Position numbers and translations under genes: made by a program. A stretch of 64,000 nt of DNA from Lama glama (lineage: Eukaryota), in contig CM052816.1 in assembly GCA_028534125.1 (NCBI GenBank), positions 57,476,001 to 57,540,000 on the forward strand, given 5' to 3'. Positions 7,979-60,189 of the stretch are shown piece after piece. Below the pieces are notes generated by a model. That model ran no database searches. It had not been told where the DNA came from and saw nothing but the letters and a program-made list of their open reading frames with translations. Within the stretch, counting starts at the first letter, position 1. Every line of letters starts with the position of its first letter.

Positions 7979-8103
7979 GTTTTTTTTGTGGGGGAGAGAA
8001 GGTAATTAGGCTTGTTTATTTTTTAGAGGAGGTACTCGGGATTGAACCCAGGACCTCATGCCTGCTAAGCATACGCACTACCACTTGAACTATCCCCTCC
8101 CCC
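7979..8103 (-). mobile_element. tRNA-Ala-derived SINE (camelid Vic-1-like)
   Basis: Reverse-complemented A/B boxes (gggattgaacccaggacctc...actaccacttgaactatcccctcccc), poly-T tail, flanking 17-bp direct repeat ctagcagtagtacactg (7953-7969 and 8104-8120). Confidence 0.85.
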
Positions 8104-8936
8104 CTAGCAGTAGTACACTGTATTGTTTTTATTTCATCCCTGAATCTACAGTGTATTTTGTTAATTGTTTTATTTTTGCTGTGCCTTGGAGAATTAAAGG
8201 AAATCTGTGTCCATGCTAGGAGAGAAACTAGTTGGGTAGAGTAGTATTCTGGAGAAGCTGGTTATCAGATGGCAGGAGTGACCTGCTAGACTCCAATAGT
8301 GGTGACAAATGATCAGGAAAACTGATTTATGGAATGTGTAATAGGTCTATGGGAGGGAAATCTACAGGAAGAATGGGTTTCTTACAGCTTATGGATACAG
8401 ATTCATAGTTTTTGTACTTTGGCTATTAAAGAAAATGTGACCTTGTTATGTAATCCCACATTTGTGTGGTCTGTGGATTATTGAGGCCAAGTCATTTGTT
8501 CCTTTACTTATTCATCCATCCCACAAATATTTATTGGTTGCCTATTATGTGCTGGGACTGAGCCAGGCATGTAGATACATTGATGACTAACAGAGTCCCC
8601 GCCCTTTAGGAGAAGACTCCTGGAAGTTAAATACTAACAAATCAAATTGTAAGGAGATGCAAAGGGAAATAGGAGAGGAAACGGAGAAATGAAAAAATAA
8701 TAGATGGATATATATTACTATGTAAACATTTAAATATCTATAAAATGAAAATCAATAAAGAAAGCTAAAAAATAAAGCAGACTGAGGAAATTACTTGTAC
8801 TAAATATGCCAAGTGAGCTAATGAAATTTTAAGTACACCAGTCTTTAGTGAAAGCTAAAGCCCAACACCAAATCCCTAAAGAACAAAAGGACACTAATAG
8901 CATTCCAATAAGAGAAAACTTAAAAATATGCCTTCA

Positions 8937-9072
8937 GAGGGGAGGGTATAGCTCAGTGGTAGAGTGCACACTTAGCACACATGAGGTCCTGGGTTCAATT
9001 CCAGTACCTCCATTAAAAAAAAAAATTTGTAAAGTAAATAAATAAATAAACCTAATTACCGCCCCTCTAAAA
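8937..9072 (+). mobile_element. tRNA-Ala-derived SINE (camelid Vic-1-like)
   Basis: ggggagggtatagctcagtggtagagtgc...gaggtcctgggttcaattccagtacctcca followed by an A-rich tail and aaacctaattacc. Confidence 0.9.
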
Positions 9073-10755: not shown

Positions 10756-11280
10756 CTGTAAAGAGAGCCTTGCTGTATGATGAAATAAAGAAGAAAAACC
10801 AAGTAAGGGAGTGTAAAAGTGGAATAGAGAATACTCCCTCAACAAATGTACATGTATGTTTTACATGTACATTTATATTTACTAAAAAGGACTATTATAT
10901 ACAATAAATGCTAATTCCAGTAGGGAATGAAAATTTGAAATTATCTAAATATAAACTGATTTCTGCAATTGCAGCTCTTCTTCCAGAAGTATCCCTTTTT
11001 TCCTTCTTCTGCTGGCTCAACCATATAAAATGCAGCCATACACACAGAAATCTCACTTATACCAAAGACTTTGTCATCTAATTCAAAGGATAGCACCTGT
11101 TCTGGAGTGGTCAGTTTTACCATTTTTGATACCATGAGTAACTTCCAATAGTTCTCTTACTTTTCTTCCTTCAGCTTATTTTTTAACTTGAGAATAAAAA
11201 GTTCCTACAAATGTAGGCAACGACTGATTATTATGAAGCCATGAAATAAGCAGCCACCATAATTGATTTTAAACCTATTC

Positions 11281-14200
11281 TGTCATATAACTCACTTTGG
11301 TAAACACGCTTTTACAGCTTAGCCCCTCTGGTCAAGCTCTCACTTCTGAAAGTCAGTCTGTCAGGGGCAGACTCCCTCCAACAGCATGTCTCTGAGAGGT
11401 ACCCAACCAACAGTAGTCTCACTTGAGTAACCACGCTTCTACAGATGATGTCAACCCAGTTATACCTCTGAGAGTTCACCAATTCCTGAACTTTGTGCTT
11501 CCCTAACTTCTTACATAGTATAAGACTGGCAATGTGTTCTGCTTGAAAAGACTGTGTCTGACTAGCATCTCTTACTATGACAAGCAATAAATTAGCTTTG
11601 TCTTTTTATTTCAGATGTTGAGTGATGGTCTCATTGGACAGTTTTGGAGGTTCCACTGAGATTATTTTGAAGACCCTCATTTGGCAGCATTCCAGGAAAC
11701 CCTGAGGCCAACAGGTACACTCATAGGACACCTTGTGCCAAAATTCTGTTTACTCTTCAGATATGTTGTCAAGTGAGTCATTTTCAACCATAATCTGATC
11801 TCTGACTAGTTAGTTACATTGAGTTCATGTTGCTGACTTTATTTTGTTATTCTAGGATTTGTAACCAAATATGTCTTTCTTTAGGCCTAAATCTTTGTAC
11901 AGAGCAATGAGATCTTTTGGTTTAGAGATATAACTTTTGCCAAGTAATTAGACCTAGGTCTTTGTATGAGATCATTAGACCTTTTGTTTCGGAGAGGTAT
12001 GCCATTTGAGAAATGGGTTTGGGTTTTTTGGGGGTTTTGTTTGTTTGTTTGTTGCCATTAACCTACTTATTCTCCTGCTGCTTGCCTTGCTTTTGCTGCT
12101 GTTTATCTATATGTACAAAGTCTTGTTTCATGTGTTTTTGCTTTGTCCTGGGTTGTTTTGTTTCTTTTGAATGTGTAAGGGAGTGTTCCATAGAGAACAG
12201 GTTGGAGGATAAGCCTGATAAGTTTTTAATTCAATGCAAGCCAGACTTAAGGGCTAATAGTTAGAGATCTGTTAGACCAGCAATCAATTTGTAAAAAAAA
12301 GAGTTTGCCATACTTTGTTTATGGTCCCCTATAAAGCCTTCATGAAGGCACACTCTCTTGTTAATTTGTTCACTTTGTTTTGTCCTTGCTCAAGAGTCAA
12401 GGATTGTCAGGTTGTTGATGGTATGGTGCCTTACCAGTCTCTGCTTGGTTGGGGAACCCTAATATCCTTCAAAAGCCCACATTGTAGACTGACTTCAGTG
12501 GTCTGTCTTTCTTGTGTGTTATGGGTTTATGTATGCCAAAATCTCTTGCTCCTCCTGGAAGAGCTTCTATTTCCTTTTAAGAAGCACTGTAATCTAACTT
12601 TTGCACTTTTCTTGATAAACAGCCCCCCAAGTTTTTTTGACTTAAAATAATGATGTCAAGTTTAGCATGTCCAAATCTTTAAATTAATATCATTAAGAAC
12701 TTTAAAAATATTAAGAGACAAAATACCAAATAATCAGTAGTCAACTTCTTTAATTGTCATGCTAAGACCTCAAAAAAATTCTAATGCAAGACAATCTCTC
12801 TCAAACATTTTGAAACGTGTTCACTTTGCATTTCTCTTTTGTTTTTGACTCAGCTTTATTTGGCTTTCTAAATGAGTTATTCTTTTTTCAGGGTTTTCTC
12901 AGGGAAAGAACATTTATGTTATAAAATTTCTAGACCAGAAGGTTGAATTAAAATTCTTATATAGAGCCAAGTTAAGGGACATAACTAAAAATTTTCCTAA
13001 ACTTTGGAATACAGGCAGAAATTTGGTACAGAATTTAATAATTTGTTACACAGTTAATTTCCTCTATTACATATTTGTACCAAATAGTTTATCTAATGCT
13101 TAGCATCTCACATAGGGAAGATGCTTAATAAGCAGAAAGATAGAAAAGATTTAAATCATCCAGTTATATAAACAAAAGAATTTGTCTTAAGAGAGCAATA
13201 AAAATGAAAAATTGACGACAGTTAGACAACTTTAGAAATAATTATTTAAAGGGAAAAAAATTGAAAAAAGATTCAAATTGTAAACAAAACAAAAATGAAA
13301 AATATACTTCAGAAAATATTCTAGAAGCTGGAGTAAACCCACAATTAGAGAGATGTATCTTCTCTTGTCATAAATGGGATCAAATCTGAAATAAGGAATT
13401 TAATAATAAAAAAGAAAGTAAAATATAAAATTTCCAATCTAGGAAATATTGCCGGAGCCTTAGGAAGTAAATAAGCTGAAACTCAGTAATGTTTGGCTCA
13501 CTAGTTAAAAAATAACTAAAAAGTTTTTGTTCTCTAAAATTTGGGAGCCTGTGGATAGGAAAACCTGTAGATATTGCAAATACAATGGCAATTGAAAGAA
13601 TTAATGTTCCATATGGGCTAAGACATAGAAGGACAATTATCCAACATGTGTCCATTGTTGCTGCTCCAGGGCGACATTAAACCCAGCACTTCCCTTTCCT
13701 TCTTCTAAACTCTCAAAAGGACTAATACAGCTTTTTTGTTGCTATGGAGCTATCATGTTTACCCTTAATCTCCTTACGATAGAACACCAGATCCCTAAGA
13801 ATAAAATCTTAAAGATGTTTGAAAACTAAGAAAGACTTTCAATACAAAAAAAGAGAGAGAAATTTTAACTTAAAGTAAAAATGACTGTGCCATGTGGTGA
13901 AAGAATATAACAAAAGACAAATTTGAGGGTATATAGTAAATTTTGGAAGGTGTGAGGAAAAACAAGGTTTATGTGCCTTGGCTTATTGAAAGCCCTAAAA
14001 TAATGAAAATTTCTAAGAATCCTAAGTCCTTTCCTGAGTCTCAACCTGTAATTGATACTTTGGAATCATGATCAGAAGGGCATTCCTTTCTTTTCTGTGA
14101 CACAATTCATGCAAATTTAATAGGTAGGGATTTACTTTGCAAATGGAGCCACTAGATCAAATGAACTGTAAAAGGATTACTTCTTAAAATCCCAGAAATT

Positions 14201-20788: not shown

Positions 20789-21855
20789 ATTTATTGAGTG
20801 CCTTTTGTACAGAAGATTCTGTTCCTGATCCTTGACAAACATTGTCTCAATTAATTCATACAAAAACCTAGTGACATGAGTTTTCCTGTCCCCATTTTAC
20901 AGATGAGGAAAGTGAACCCCGGTAAAGCTAAAGACATTGGCTAAAGATCACATAGTTAGCAAGAGGAACAAGTGCCTCTTACATTCCTCTTTTCAAACTT
21001 TTGTTCTTAATCTTTGACTCTCCAGTCAAGCTGTGCCTTGATAAATTGTGGCATTCTTGAGAATCTGCAGCAGGTGGCCTATTTTCAGCTTGAGTACTTT
21101 TCATTTATGGCAGACCCTTATAGGACCTTCATGGTGAGGCAAAATCTCATCCTGCTCTAACTCAGATGGGCTTGGCCATGAGCTGAGTTTCATGAGCTAG
21201 GGAGCGGTTAGAGGAAGGGGAGGGTTGGCCTGGACCCAAAGTGGTTAGCTATTGGTCAACATGCAATATCCAAAAGGCCAAAGCAGATAATTCAGAACTG
21301 ACATAGTTAGGAATCCTTGCGAAAAGAATCCTCCAATGGATAGGGCAGTGTAGCAGGAGTTTCCAACTAGTGGCAAAATCCAAAATCTGATAAGGGGCCA
21401 TATATAGGTTCAAGACCCATTCGCTATTCTTGGAATCCAAGAGATGGATTGAACCACATATAGGAGGTTAGTGGGCTGAAACTCAGGACAAGCCTCTAAC
21501 CCCAGCAGGGAAATGGGTAGCTAGGAAAGCCCAGGTATAACCCCAGTTTTACCACCTGGACAGCGTGGTTGTAGGAGGAGGGAGCTATAGCTCAGTGGGT
21601 CTGTGGATCTTCAGGGCTTGAGAGCAGGTCCACTGGACACTAGACCTGAAACAGCATACCAACACACTGTTGTCAGGGTCCAGTCTGCTTAGATGGTTTC
21701 AGGGGCTAAGGCTGAACCAGAACAGCTGGAGAAGGAAGGCCCTCATATTCCTCACTTAGGAGGGGAACTAGGTGAAACTAGACAGGCAACAGTGAGATGC
21801 AGGTTGGACAATCCCATTCTTGCAACTTTTCTGCTTATGCTTTTTGAGCCCTCTA

Positions 21856-21938: not shown

Positions 21939-22986
21939 TTTGAGCCCTCTATTTCAAGTTTAAGTCCCATTCAGGCTTTTATTAGTTGTGTGGCCATAGG
22001 ACAAGTCACTTAACCTCTGCTATCTTCAGTTTATAGTAAGAAAGAAATATCTAATTCATACATCAGTGTAGGGTTTAAGAAAGATAACTGATTACAAAGT
22101 TAGTCTCAATATGAGTTAGTTATTCTTCCTTCCAGCTCTCCCAGGCCATTCATTAAATGCCATTTGTGCAATTATCTACCCTTCTCCCACCTTAACAAGG
22201 CAACAATGATAATAATTTACACATGGTCTACAGTTTCTCCAAAGTTGTTCTATTCATTATCCTATTATCTCAGCTGATTTTTTGGATAGTCCATTGAAAT
22301 AGCTAGTAAAATACTATCCTTAACATTTAAAGCTATTTTAGTTAAATAGTAACATTTAATAGTAACAATTTTTTAAAAATTCCTTGTTATAGAGAGGAAA
22401 GAAAAAAGTTGACATATTGGTGGGAAAGTCTAAACTTGTCTTAACTTGCTTCTCTAAATCAGAGGAGAACTTTTGGGGAGTAGATGATTGAAGATAGTTT
22501 GAATTATAACCTGGATACTATGATACTAGGAATGTAAGTCACTGAGCTTTTAAATTATTACTTGAGTTATGTTAGTACAGATCTTTTGGGGTACACATTT
22601 GAATGCCAAATGGTTCTTGACTATCCAAAAAAATGGTTCTCTTGGTTTCCAGAGTGGGTCTTTAGCTGATATGTCTAATATCGCTGAGTTTCTGGCCAGA
22701 GGGTATTATTGTGTTCAATAGTAGCAGAATGCTAAAATGCCTTTTAATAAGACGGTTCTTTATTGCTTTTAAAATGCTCTTGGCTATTTTTGTTCTAAAC
22801 TACTGAAGCATACACTCAGGGAAAAGCAAAATACACCTAACACATAATATGGCTGAGAGCAGAACTCTGAGGAAATGAGACACGTGACAGGGAAACATTT
22901 ACTTTTGGGGTGAGACTTCTCTTTGTTTGAGGATGGACCACTTGAATGAATTCTTTTAGTAATGTATTTGTAAGGCAAACACTTAC

Positions 22987-23063
22987 CCGTTTTTCTCAGG
23001 GGAGCCCAGAAAGTAGGGTAATAACTCCAAATGCAAAAGCTTCAGAATAAGATATTAAGTGTT
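22987..23063 (-). pseudogene. Candidate decayed exon, RGS C-terminal helices
   Basis: Acceptor acattattaacag, donor CGG|gtaagt. Joined to the previous exon it reads HHFQ-NT*YLILKLLHLELLPYFLGSPE, which fits the RGS pattern F..AQ..I..LL..D..P.FL.S. Confidence 0.6.
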
Positions 23064-23142
23064 CTGTTAATAATGTAAATGTAATATATTAACAAGTTAA
23101 TGGAAAAAATTCCCCTAAATCTAGATTTAGACTGTCCTTTGC

Positions 23143-24181
23143 CTGAAAATGATGTCAGTGGAGTTAGGTATATTTTTTTCCCATGAAGTGTCCATACAAG
23201 TCCAGGAATCACAGCAGGAAGATCATGCAGGTCTGGACTTCCTTTCACCTCAAGGTCAAGGGAAGTCTGTGATATGGATATAGACAAGCTAGAAGCAGCA
23301 CTGATGAATTGGACCATTGGTGTCCTTCACAGGAATTAAGATGGAATGACCTGGATATGGGGCAATGTTTGAGGATTCACATGATTGTCCCAGGTGTATC
23401 TTTGAGATAAGGGCAGTGTCACCATGAAGGAAATGAGTGCTCATGTACCTGCCATCCTGAGGTAGGAAAGAGAAAGGCCTTACACTGGGGCGAGAAGGTT
23501 TTCCTCCTTCCTTGGGGGCAAAGAGAGAACTGAGCTTGGACTCTGGAATGTAGAGGTGTCTGAGGATTCCTGTGGTTGGGGTACAGCTGGCTCGTACCCC
23601 CATTAGGAGAAGACCTGTGAGAGCTAGGAGAAGACATTCAACTTGTGTTTGGGTTGTGACTCCCGGAGTAACCACCTGTAGTCATAGTTGTGGGCTATCT
23701 TCTTGGTATATTGCAATTTTATCTTTCAGTGAAGCCTTATTTAAAGGAATAGCTCCTTCTTAGATTGCCTTGGGGCATCAATAGAGGGTTCTATGTCCAT
23801 ACTTAAGAGTGCAGTGTAACTGTGAAAGCAGAATCAGCCTGGGACAGCTGGTTAGGTTTGATCAGAAATGCTGTGCACAAAGTAGAGCAATAATCCAGAG
23901 ATAGCATCTGGCTGGGGGATCCTGAGGATTTCTGGAACTTGCCATATTCTTCAAGTTTTCACTGCTCTCCTTGAGGGGGTAACCTAATGAAAGATGAGAC
24001 CTTCTGCTTCTACAAGGATGTGGGTCAGGATTATTTGGGCATGAAGAAGACTGACCTCTGAAAGCTGGAAAACTTAGGGGAATATTTCAGTTGTATAGCC
24101 TCCAGCAATCAACTCAGGTATCTTCTTAAAGCCGTCTCAACCTCGTATCTGAGTTCAGCATCTTTTTTAGTATTCTTTTAG
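23143..24181 (-). pseudogene. Candidate ~1 kb decayed exon with RGS-like segments at both ends
   Basis: Non-repeat block richer in GC than its flanks. The start gives KDAELRYEVETALRRYLS*LLEAIQLKY. The end gives DGRYMSTHFLHGDTALISKIHLGQSCES, QFISAASSLSISISQ and HHFQ. Donor CAG|gcaaag (GC-type or mutated GT). Confidence 0.55.
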
Positions 24182-30138: not shown

Positions 30139-30212
30139 CTTAATGCAGGTGGGGTAAAATTTTATGTTCTTTTCAGTCGAAATCTTAGTAACTCAAAGTT
30201 CCTGTAACTCAC

Positions 30213-30708
30213 CCTCCTGGAAAATTTCCCCACAGAAATTTCTGTGATTATCCCAAAGGGGTCTGACTTCACATGTGCCCACAAACCAGCCCAGCAAGAA
30301 CATCACAGGATACTGCTTTGTTCTTCCTCTTCCCCACCAGCTTCCCGGAGTTCCTATCTGCAGCCTCTACTTTGGGATTCTGGTCACAGGGCAGAGGAGG
30401 GAAAATGGCCCTTTCCTCAATTTTTGTGTCTCACTTCTTTGCCAGAGCCCTGAATGAAGTTGCGCTGTCTGTGCCCAGACCACTGCCGAGTTTTTCATGA
30501 AAACAGGTCCTTTTTGTCTCTGAGTAATTCTCTACCAAGAACCCACAAGGACAGGCATCAGTTTTATTTTTCAGGACTCTCTTCATCTTGAGTGTAACTG
30601 ACTAACCTCTCACCTTGACTTATATTTACAGCTGCTACTTTCTTCCCGTATATTTACATAGTCTGCTGGTTTCTCCTCTTACTGCCAAATGTCTTCTAAA
30701 GCAATCAG
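30213..30708 (-). pseudogene. Candidate large decayed exon
   Basis: Acceptor ttttgttagttttgacag, donor AGG|gtgagt. Protein-like pieces such as IEERAIFPPLPCDQNPKVEAADRNSGK with stops. A short (about 74 nt) intron separates it from the next candidate exon. Confidence 0.42.
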
Positions 30709-35930: not shown

Positions 35931-36317
35931 TTAGCTGGTACATGGAGCGTAGGAGTTGACATATCTGTGGACAGCTTCACTTCCAAAAGCCACTGCGTAC
36001 TTGGCTAGTTTCCCGGGCAGCAGAAGATACACTGCCTTCTGGATGTCTTCAGGGGTGAGGGTACGACGATTCCTTAAATTCATTATGTTGTAGGCTTCTG
36101 TGGAAATGCGCTCAAAGATGTTGTTGATCATGTTGTTTATGACGTCCAAGGTACGGGATGATATGCTCCTGTGGGGAACCACTTCCTTTAGGACCCTGTT
36201 TATGTAGAGTGAATAATTCCTAAGGCCAGATTCAGTGATGGACTGTGATTTCTTTCTGGAGATTGGGTTTTGATATCCTCTGGAGCACTTGTTCTTTTTG
36301 GCGACAGGTCTGGCCAT
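35931..36317 (-). CDS. H2BL1: Histone H2B variant H2B.L (subacrosomal H2B, SubH2Bv), single exon, 128 aa
   Basis: Intact ORF with strong Kozak context (ACA ATG G). H2B histone fold is recognisable (NYSLYINRVLKEV...ISSRTLDVINNMINNIFERISTEA...RRTLTPEDIQKAVYLLLPGKLAKYAVAFGSEAVHRYVNS). The N-tail and the ESGLRNYSLYINRVLKEVVP segment match my recollection of bovine SubH2Bv rather than canonical H2B. Confidence 0.93.
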   Translation of the reverse strand: MARPVAKKNKCSRGYQNPISRKKSQSITESGLRNYSLYINRVLKEVVPHRSISSRTLDVINNMINNIFERISTEAYNIMNLRNRRTLTPEDIQKAVYLLLPGKLAKYAVAFGSEAVHRYVNSYAPCTS

Positions 36318-45108: not shown

Positions 45109-45244
45109 CAGGGGAGCAATAGGTATAGCTCAGTGGTAGAGTGCATGCTTAGCATGCAAGAAGTCCTGGGTTCAATCCTCAGTACCTCCATTTAAAAATA
45201 AATTAATGAAATAAAATAGAAATCTTAAAAAAAAAGACCATATG
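45109..45244 (+). mobile_element. tRNA-Ala-derived SINE inserted in L1 ORF1
   Basis: ggtatagctcagtggtagagtgcatgcttagcatgcaagaagtcctgggttcaatcc. Perfect 16-bp TSD aaaaatttagaaaata at 45093-45108 and 45245-45260. Confidence 0.9.
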
Positions 45245-58706: not shown

Positions 58707-59763
58707 TTTGTGTGTCCTTTTAGTTTTTGGTTTTCTTTTGTCCTGCAGGGTCCTGAATCTTTCTCTCATGTTTCTTTTTGCCTTCTCTGTGAAGTATCCA
58801 AAGATTGCCTCTACTGTTTTTATTCTTTTCTCCTCCCGTCTTTCCAGAACTGTCTATTTGAATCTCATGTCCCTTTTCAGTATCTTCCTTGTAGTCAGTA
58901 CTTTAATGTACCAGAATTTTTTCAATATTTTGACACTCAAGATAGACTTTCTGGGAGCTATTTTAGCTTAATTCCCTCTTTTTCCTTCCATGCAGATTTT
59001 CTGAAAGTCCCTCCCTAGGTCTCTGCAAAGGCTTGCGCTGGAAGATCTAGATATAGTACTATTGTAAATTGATGTGCTTTTCCCTCAATTACAGATAATT
59101 TAAAGTTTGTAATGTTACTGGTTTTTTAGTTTTGATGAGGTGTGGGATTATGTGTGTGTCTTTTTTCTTGTGGTTGACCTGTATAGTTTTTTGGTGGACA
59201 TATGCAGAGATTCAGATTTAGGTGGCCACCATTATCTCAGCTATGCAGAAATGATGCCACTTGTCTTTTAACTTTGCTTATAGTATCCTTGCAGAACAGA
59301 AGTTTTGCAGTTTTATGCAATGAAATCTGTCTCTATTTATTGCTTATGGAATTGCTTATGCTTGAGAAAGTTTACCTCTCCTCATAATTCTAAAACTGTA
59401 ATCTCATATTTTCCCAGTAAGATTTTTTTTAGTAATAAAAATTATAAATCTGAATGTATTTATGATGTGGGAGATAGGAATCTAACTTCAATTTTTTCTA
59501 TGGTTTTTAAAGTAAGTAGTTATATAATATAAAATAACATTATTTCAGGGTGGTTATGGATCCTTCTCAAATTCTTAGGCTAATGAAATAGTAAAGCCTG
59601 TTAGGAAATGTGTAAAGGATTCTGATATGAAAATGCCTCGAAGGCAGGAGCCAAAACTTGGGATCCACAACTGAATCAAAGTTCATTAAAGAGAGGTTGA
59701 GATCAACATTAATAAGAAATGTACCCCTTTTTAAAGTTTTATTGTCTTTTAAGATTATTATTA

Positions 59764-59832
59764 ATAGAGGTACTGGGGATTGAACCCAGTACATGCTAAG
59801 TGTATGCTCTAACACTGAGCTATACTCTCCCC
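59764..59832 (-). mobile_element. Short tRNA-derived SINE copy
   Basis: gaggtactggggattgaacccag...ctaacactgagctatactctcccc, with an internal deletion relative to the other copies. Confidence 0.8.
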
Positions 59833-60189
59833 TATTCCAACTTGTTAATAACCATTTAAAGCATTTACAGACTAGCAAATGATTGTGCTTTATGCACTCA
59901 GTCAGGAATGGCAAATAAATTTTGATTCATGTGTCGGCCCCAATTGATTGATAATGGCTGCCTGGAACTCTGGGTTAGGAAGGGTTGTGAGCCTAAATTT
60001 GTGCTCAGTTGGAAAGAAGGATATAATGACTATTGACGGTTAGAAGTAGGCTGGAGGTGTTGTGAATGTGGCACACTTACCTACCCTCATAAGCATTTGT
60101 TGTGATCATTATTACCTGGGATGGTGTCTGGCATATGACAGAGGACAGAAGCTAGGCTGTTTGGGTTTCAGTCCTGGCTCTGCCATAGT

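Follow-up and report, generated by a model that had tools for sequence, protein, structure and literature searches.

Non-canonical RGS-homology proteins include RGS22, RGSL1, Axin, AKAP10 and SNX13/14/25, and their RGS-homology domains are divergent, carry loop insertions and lack the GAP asparagine. To our knowledge the locus described here, beside the histone gene H2B.L, is not that of any of these proteins. In RGS4, Asn128 contacts G-alpha (PMC7572916, in excerpt). Genes with lost coding potential and unitary pseudogenes of mammals have been catalogued by Hezroni et al. 2017 (PMC5577775, in excerpt) and Frith (PMC9004415, in excerpt), with GULOP as the textbook case.

Judged from its sequence, the segment 23456-22987 on the minus strand of the window, by which the whole 64,000-nt stretch of DNA analysed is meant, very likely consists of two dead exons of a unitary pseudogene, and that the dead exons are real at all, whether or not they persist in a non-coding RNA, is a still safer statement. 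With less assurance, the dead gene would probably have encoded an RGS-homology domain. The window is mammalian, with a CpG observed/expected ratio of 0.03-0.25 and a total of 1000 N in two runs. What we take to be LINE-1-like fragments lie beside both N runs and at ~14.9-16.2 kb, 31.9-32.9 kb and 43.4-47.4 kb, and the flanking genes of the locus are presumably ZNF366 and TNPO1. Two tRNA-like Rfam matches on the plus strand, at 8942-9012 and 45119-45190, match each other and have related copies near 8015-8105 and 59728-59833; they are probably heads of tRNA-derived SINEs. The sole intact gene seen in the window is a histone gene at 36317-35931 on the minus strand with an ORF of 128 residues, which in a by-eye comparison fits the rows that Raman et al. 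(PMC8857922) give for H2B.L/subH2B in their supplement. Its exact sequence was absent from a 15-billion protein collection. Since the same preprint describes the H2B.L variant as unduplicated, the histone fixes the locus, and Table S1 of PMC8857922 provides H2B.L coordinates for other mammals, among them opossum (monDom5 chr3:46,873,811), platypus (ornAna2 chr1:13,166,725), elephant, armadillo, horse and dog. H2B.L is the sperm histone gene adjoining the dead exons, and the RGS-like exons lie 12.5 kb downstream of it on the same strand. The features are listed here, those of exon A as read in a frameshift-aware alignment of the window with four relatives (P0002, P0003, P0008 and P0010).

35931..36317, minus strand: H2B.L (subH2B) histone, intact and intronless (Pfam Histone E 6.9e-21), the synteny anchor
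23457..23481, minus strand: polypyrimidine tract with the AG acceptor that opens exon A (matrix score of 10.5, among the best 0.05% of 4109 AG sites)
23304..23456, minus strand: exon A piece 1, 51 codons, DGR...CE...PIH, with helix 3-4-like G......FL and CE (from translation; register of P0003, and of P0010 from the CE region)
23263..23301, minus strand: exon A piece 2, 13 codons, ..ACLYPYHRL (from the net extra base in P0002, P0008 and P0010 and the motif test)
23159..23260, minus strand: exon A piece 3, 34 codons, LEVKG...LTP (stop-free; 4 nt have been lost just before it, near 23261)
23143..23154, minus strand: end of exon A, HHFQ (2 nt have been lost just before it, near 23156; LTPLTH.FQ is in one frame in P0008 and P0010)
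23064..23142, minus strand: putative GC-AG intron, 79 nt, phase 0, 27% GC (from the splice matrix; ends kept in P0008 and P0010)
22987..23063, minus strand: exon B (77 nt), helix 7-9-like; its third codon is TAA (23057-23055), and a GTAAGT donor follows

Exon A occupies 23456-23143 (314 nt) on the minus strand of the window, and the intron at 23142-23064 starts with GCAAAG and ends with TTAACAG. Both the 79-nt intron with a GC donor and the peptide positions given in the initial annotation were recovered exactly (DGRYM... at 23456, QFISAASS at 23311, HHFQ at 23154 and NT*YLILK...GSPE after 23063). A rough matrix of general splice-site frequencies, applied to the minus strand of the window, places the donor at 22986 in the top 0.2% of 3033 GT sites. 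For the 79-nt intron, the GC donor ranks among the best 1.1% of 2034 GC sites, and the acceptor at 23063 is weak, being only in the top 15.7% of AG sites. GC content is 0.44 in exon A, 0.27 in the intron and 0.39 in exon B, a contrast that is weak evidence for exons and is equally extreme in ~13% of windows. The DGR frame is open for 75 codons upstream of the 23456 acceptor, to 23681, so exon A may start further upstream, with other acceptors at 23614 and 23510, and 23457..23481 could be coding instead of a polypyrimidine tract and acceptor. The segment 23681-23457 on the minus strand is GC-rich (0.51) and conserved in the relatives as much as exon A.

Both outer ends of the exon pair are splice sites, so further exons must have existed; Pfam and motif scans within the window did not identify them. 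When a further ~20 kb of the minus strand was translated in three frames, Pfam matched 2 of 24 translations, both with E > 0.1. A short exon-like piece at 24141-24056 on the minus strand contains one TGA, is followed by a GT donor at 24055 and has two CpGs close by, and its open reading ends in phase 2, which does not allow a direct join to the phase-0 acceptor at 23456. As a candidate RGS piece it did not rank, and SEE*TEFW at 11761, also considered as an RGS piece, was equalled in 145 of 200 null windows. Three unique-looking blocks at 21130-21720, 30170-30430 and 10950-11750, the first two GC-rich and some with splice-like ends (GTGAGT near 30212), gave no Pfam match; they may represent old repeats or additional dead exons.

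Relatives of the stretch were sought by phmmer with one frame containing ~77 in-register residues against 1.84 billion representatives. Three proteins were returned, the real relatives P0002 and P0003 and one chance match, and no intact gene product was found among these representatives. The bacterial-type fn3 protein P0004 was dismissed as a chance match. In a profile search 5 of the 2179 candidates were scored. Near-identical members came in through cluster look-ups, and searches for longer proteins found no relatives. The relatives are Logan or ENA ORFs that shift among the frames of the window, and P0002, P0003, P0007 and P0008 read W at its TGA positions, which together mark them as ORF calls on orthologous mammal DNA and not as products of an intact gene. 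As proteins these four are artefacts, yet they are useful records of orthologous indels. Pooled counts exclude P0007 and P0009, which hardly differ from the window. Scans for related loci gave three, all GC-rich and none matching the window at the DNA level; viral contigs yielded no such locus. Of 24 sequencing-run rows, 20 contain the stretch wholly or in part; word sharing of 0.07-0.38 in the rows marked RNA or 'RNA?' is not evidence of expression.

The alignment with the relatives shows that the window lacks a net 1 nt near 23303 compared with P0002, P0008 and P0010, 4 nt near 23261 compared with P0002 and P0010 (in P0008 the net frame shift is identical) and 2 nt near 23156 compared with P0008 and P0010. 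Inversely, P0002, P0008 and P0010 lack 2 nt near 23395 that are retained in the window and P0003. Taking the longer state at every indel, the polarity of which comes from few lineages, gives 314+7 = 321 nt or 107 codons in phase 0-0, in frame into exon B. The four window pieces contain no stops in this reconstructed register, while the raw frames contain 4, 3 and 6, and 88 of 20000 shuffles (0.44%) were stop-free in a fixed frame. P0010 stays in a single frame all the way from CE to HHFQ without reading through any TGA, its freedom from stops following from its selection as an ORF, and P0003 keeps the same register from upstream of DGR past CE until its own stop (its tail was placed by eye).

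In the reconstructed register LY..Y.......EV stands at helix-5 spacing in place of QFISAASSLSISISQ, the piece proposed in the initial annotation as helix 5-6-like, and piece 2 would be the true helix-5 register after the 1-nt loss near 23303. As an ancestral helix 5-6, QFISAASSLSISISQ is out of frame in this register, requires at least one frameshift common to all lineages and hits several TGA in P0002 and P0008. Aligned in this way it is probably off-register, and a piece as good is found at 66% of anchors, which is chance level. If the reconstruction is right, its reading frame is the one that any further search should use.

Three frameshifts and the TAA at 23057-23055 disable the reading frame in the window. 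At the two intron ends P0008 and P0010 have FQ-AK and KQ-NI, and as Ala is GCN their donor is also GC. Orthologues had been expected to show whether the donor was once GT; both relatives that reach it have GC, which argues against a recent GT-to-GC change. Their intron measures 28 codons (84 nt), versus 79 nt in the window. Both relatives stop at QNI, so the exon-B stop is common to the window, P0008 and P0010, and the gene would have been dead before the lineages split. Origin as a retrocopy was rejected on the retained exon-intron structure of acceptor, GC-AG intron and donor.

The RGS motifs scored were G......FL, CE, FW..CE, [IL]Y..[FY].......EV and F..AQ..I..LM..D.YP.FL.S. They are short motifs that stand in for real RGS sequences and were scored with BLOSUM62, and many families other than RGS could have been chosen for such a test. 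The spliced helix 7-9 motif F..AQ..I..LM..D.YP.FL.S scores 37 at 23142/23063, the only junction in the window with a score of 30 or more. This score was reached in 1 of 316 simulated windows, and together with a downstream donor in none of the 316, which is in keeping with the earlier proposal that splicing 23143 to 23063 creates the RGS-like F..AQ spacing. The exon-B motif ranks first among 127,876 positions; its unspliced part alone was equalled in 45 of 400 simulated windows. With helix 7-9 as the anchor, 2.6% of window positions equal the match at helix 3-4, and 6.8% that of the four upstream motifs jointly. For helix 5 in the reconstructed register, the broad form of the motif was reached by 335 of 3648 blocks and a narrowed form, picked after the site was seen, by 0 of 3654. 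A six-motif chain in free frame scored 80, where the maxima of 200 simulated windows averaged 79.

The FW hallmark is absent, with LG in the window, LR in P0003 and LG in P0010, and CE is present in all three. The residue after EV is K in the window, P0009 and P0010, and S in the register of the initial annotation. The GAP asparagine equivalent to Asn128 of RGS4, at a position inferred from general RGS spacing, is also absent. The reconstructed domain would have ~107 + 25 codons, or ~132 residues, with loops 13-14 residues longer than in canonical RGS.

RGS was not detected by Pfam in any of 7 pieces, any of 4 homologue ORFs or on single frames, and no RGS match was obtained in the PDB with single frames, pieces or exon A profiles, or in the ESM Atlas. 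The inputs for Pfam, PDB, Atlas and AlphaFold were single frames, pieces or exon A profiles, each covering part of the in-register domain. For the nine-helix fold, AlphaFold on P0010 with a 6-row alignment gave pLDDT 34.4 and pTM 0.25. CRMP1, the best PDB match (E 0.006), came from a mixed-frame profile and was put down to chance. No RGS was seen by eye at 57 motif-matched loci, and PF00615 occurred in 0 of 401 prokaryote genomes. The view of the segment as an RGS-like remnant therefore holds in part: the helix 7-9 match and the helix 3-4 spacing go beyond simple chance, and the RGS-fold match that was sought with single frames, pieces and exon A profiles did not appear. As two hallmarks fail and no profile match was obtained with these partial inputs, the gene is not classed as an RGS family member, and membership of the RGS family is not established. 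The same absences of a profile or structure match, of FW and of the asparagine, together with the long loops and the many families that could be tried, would fit dead exons of a helical protein unrelated to RGS in which the motif spacing is coincidental. This we consider unlikely, since three motif blocks keep both their order and a common register over a splice junction, and a domain with RGS homology is preferred.

Conservation was pooled across four non-independent homologues. Identity was 126/177 (0.71) in-register and 103/152 (0.68) off-register (p = 0.55). For a register like that of the initial annotation it was 145/188 (0.77) versus 84/141 (0.60) (p = 0.0007), with frame confounded with position. 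The upstream flank, with 132/187 (0.71), is level with exon A. Codon-periodic conservation, another expectation for the remnant, was not shown cleanly, and clean codon-level conservation was not seen in protein-level comparison of the homologues. The pattern fits neutral drift since the split and leaves the register undecided.

Non-coding DNA that evolves neutrally, or what is left of an old repeat, in either case with splice-like and RGS-like patterns arisen by chance, would also show a flank conserved as much as the 'exon', no in-register excess, a motif chain at chance level and a weak acceptor at 23063. It is nevertheless an improbable source of a stop-free phase 0-0 reconstruction (0.44% per fixed frame) and of a spliced motif plus donor seen in none of the 316 null windows, and the stretch has no self-match elsewhere in the window. 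Dead exons are also compatible with a protein that died while its exons are still spliced and kept in a functional long non-coding RNA. Such RNAs are described in the excerpted text of PMC5577775, the splice signals are still strong and the intron ends are kept in the relatives. With no sign of constraint beyond that of the flank, this is the least probable of the alternatives.

The explanation favoured, with reasonable but not high confidence, is a decayed two-exon unitary pseudogene that encoded an RGS-homology domain. Exon A would once have comprised ~107 codons in phase 0-0 and have been spliced over a GC-AG intron to the 77-nt exon B, and together they would have encoded most of a helical RGS-homology domain of ~132 residues with long loops. 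Because a lysine occupies the place of the GAP asparagine, the protein, when still made, probably served as a non-canonical RGS-like scaffold and not as a GAP for G-alpha. The stop at codon 3 of exon B would already have been present in the common ancestor of the window lineage and the sampled relatives, each lineage would have acquired its own frameshifts after the split, and the present-day locus would have no protein product and be in apparent neutral drift. The ancestral exon is still open, which suggests a fairly recent death, and this sits uneasily with the failure to find an intact placental orthologue.

A more tentative suggestion, less likely than not to be right, is that the locus next to H2B.L represents a vertebrate RGS-homology gene not described so far. 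It would be a non-GAP paralogue belonging to none of the listed RGS families, was intact or just dead at the lineage split and possibly survives, unannotated, in some mammals or non-placental vertebrates. No description of the locus was found in the literature, the coverage being partial and genome annotations outside its scope, and none of the papers listed for LINC02056 was evolutionary by title. The terms RGS, TNPO1, ZNF366 and LINC02056 were not found in the four supplements of PMC5577775, the gene list of which seems to use database ids, and a supplement of PMC10195156 gave no match for any of five terms. If the favoured explanation is right, an unlisted mammalian gene loss and an extra RGS-homology gene are placed at a precise address. 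The biology is ordinary gene decay with no sign of present function.

Compared with canonical RGS proteins (R4, RZ, R7 and R12; PF00615), the dead exons are alike in motif order and spacing, as far as short motifs tell. They differ in having no FW, K for Asn, longer loops and a disabled gene, and their pieces have no Pfam or PDB match. With the non-canonical RGS-homology proteins they would share, in general features, divergence, long loops and the missing GAP asparagine. In length the domain is near the ~120 residues of canonical RGS (PMC10148553, in excerpt). Unlike for the unitary pseudogenes catalogued by Hezroni et al. 2017 (PMC5577775), no living counterpart came to light here among the 1.84 billion representatives. 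In being intron-bearing, at their native locus and marked by both shared and lineage-specific lesions, the dead exons are like mammalian unitary pseudogenes.
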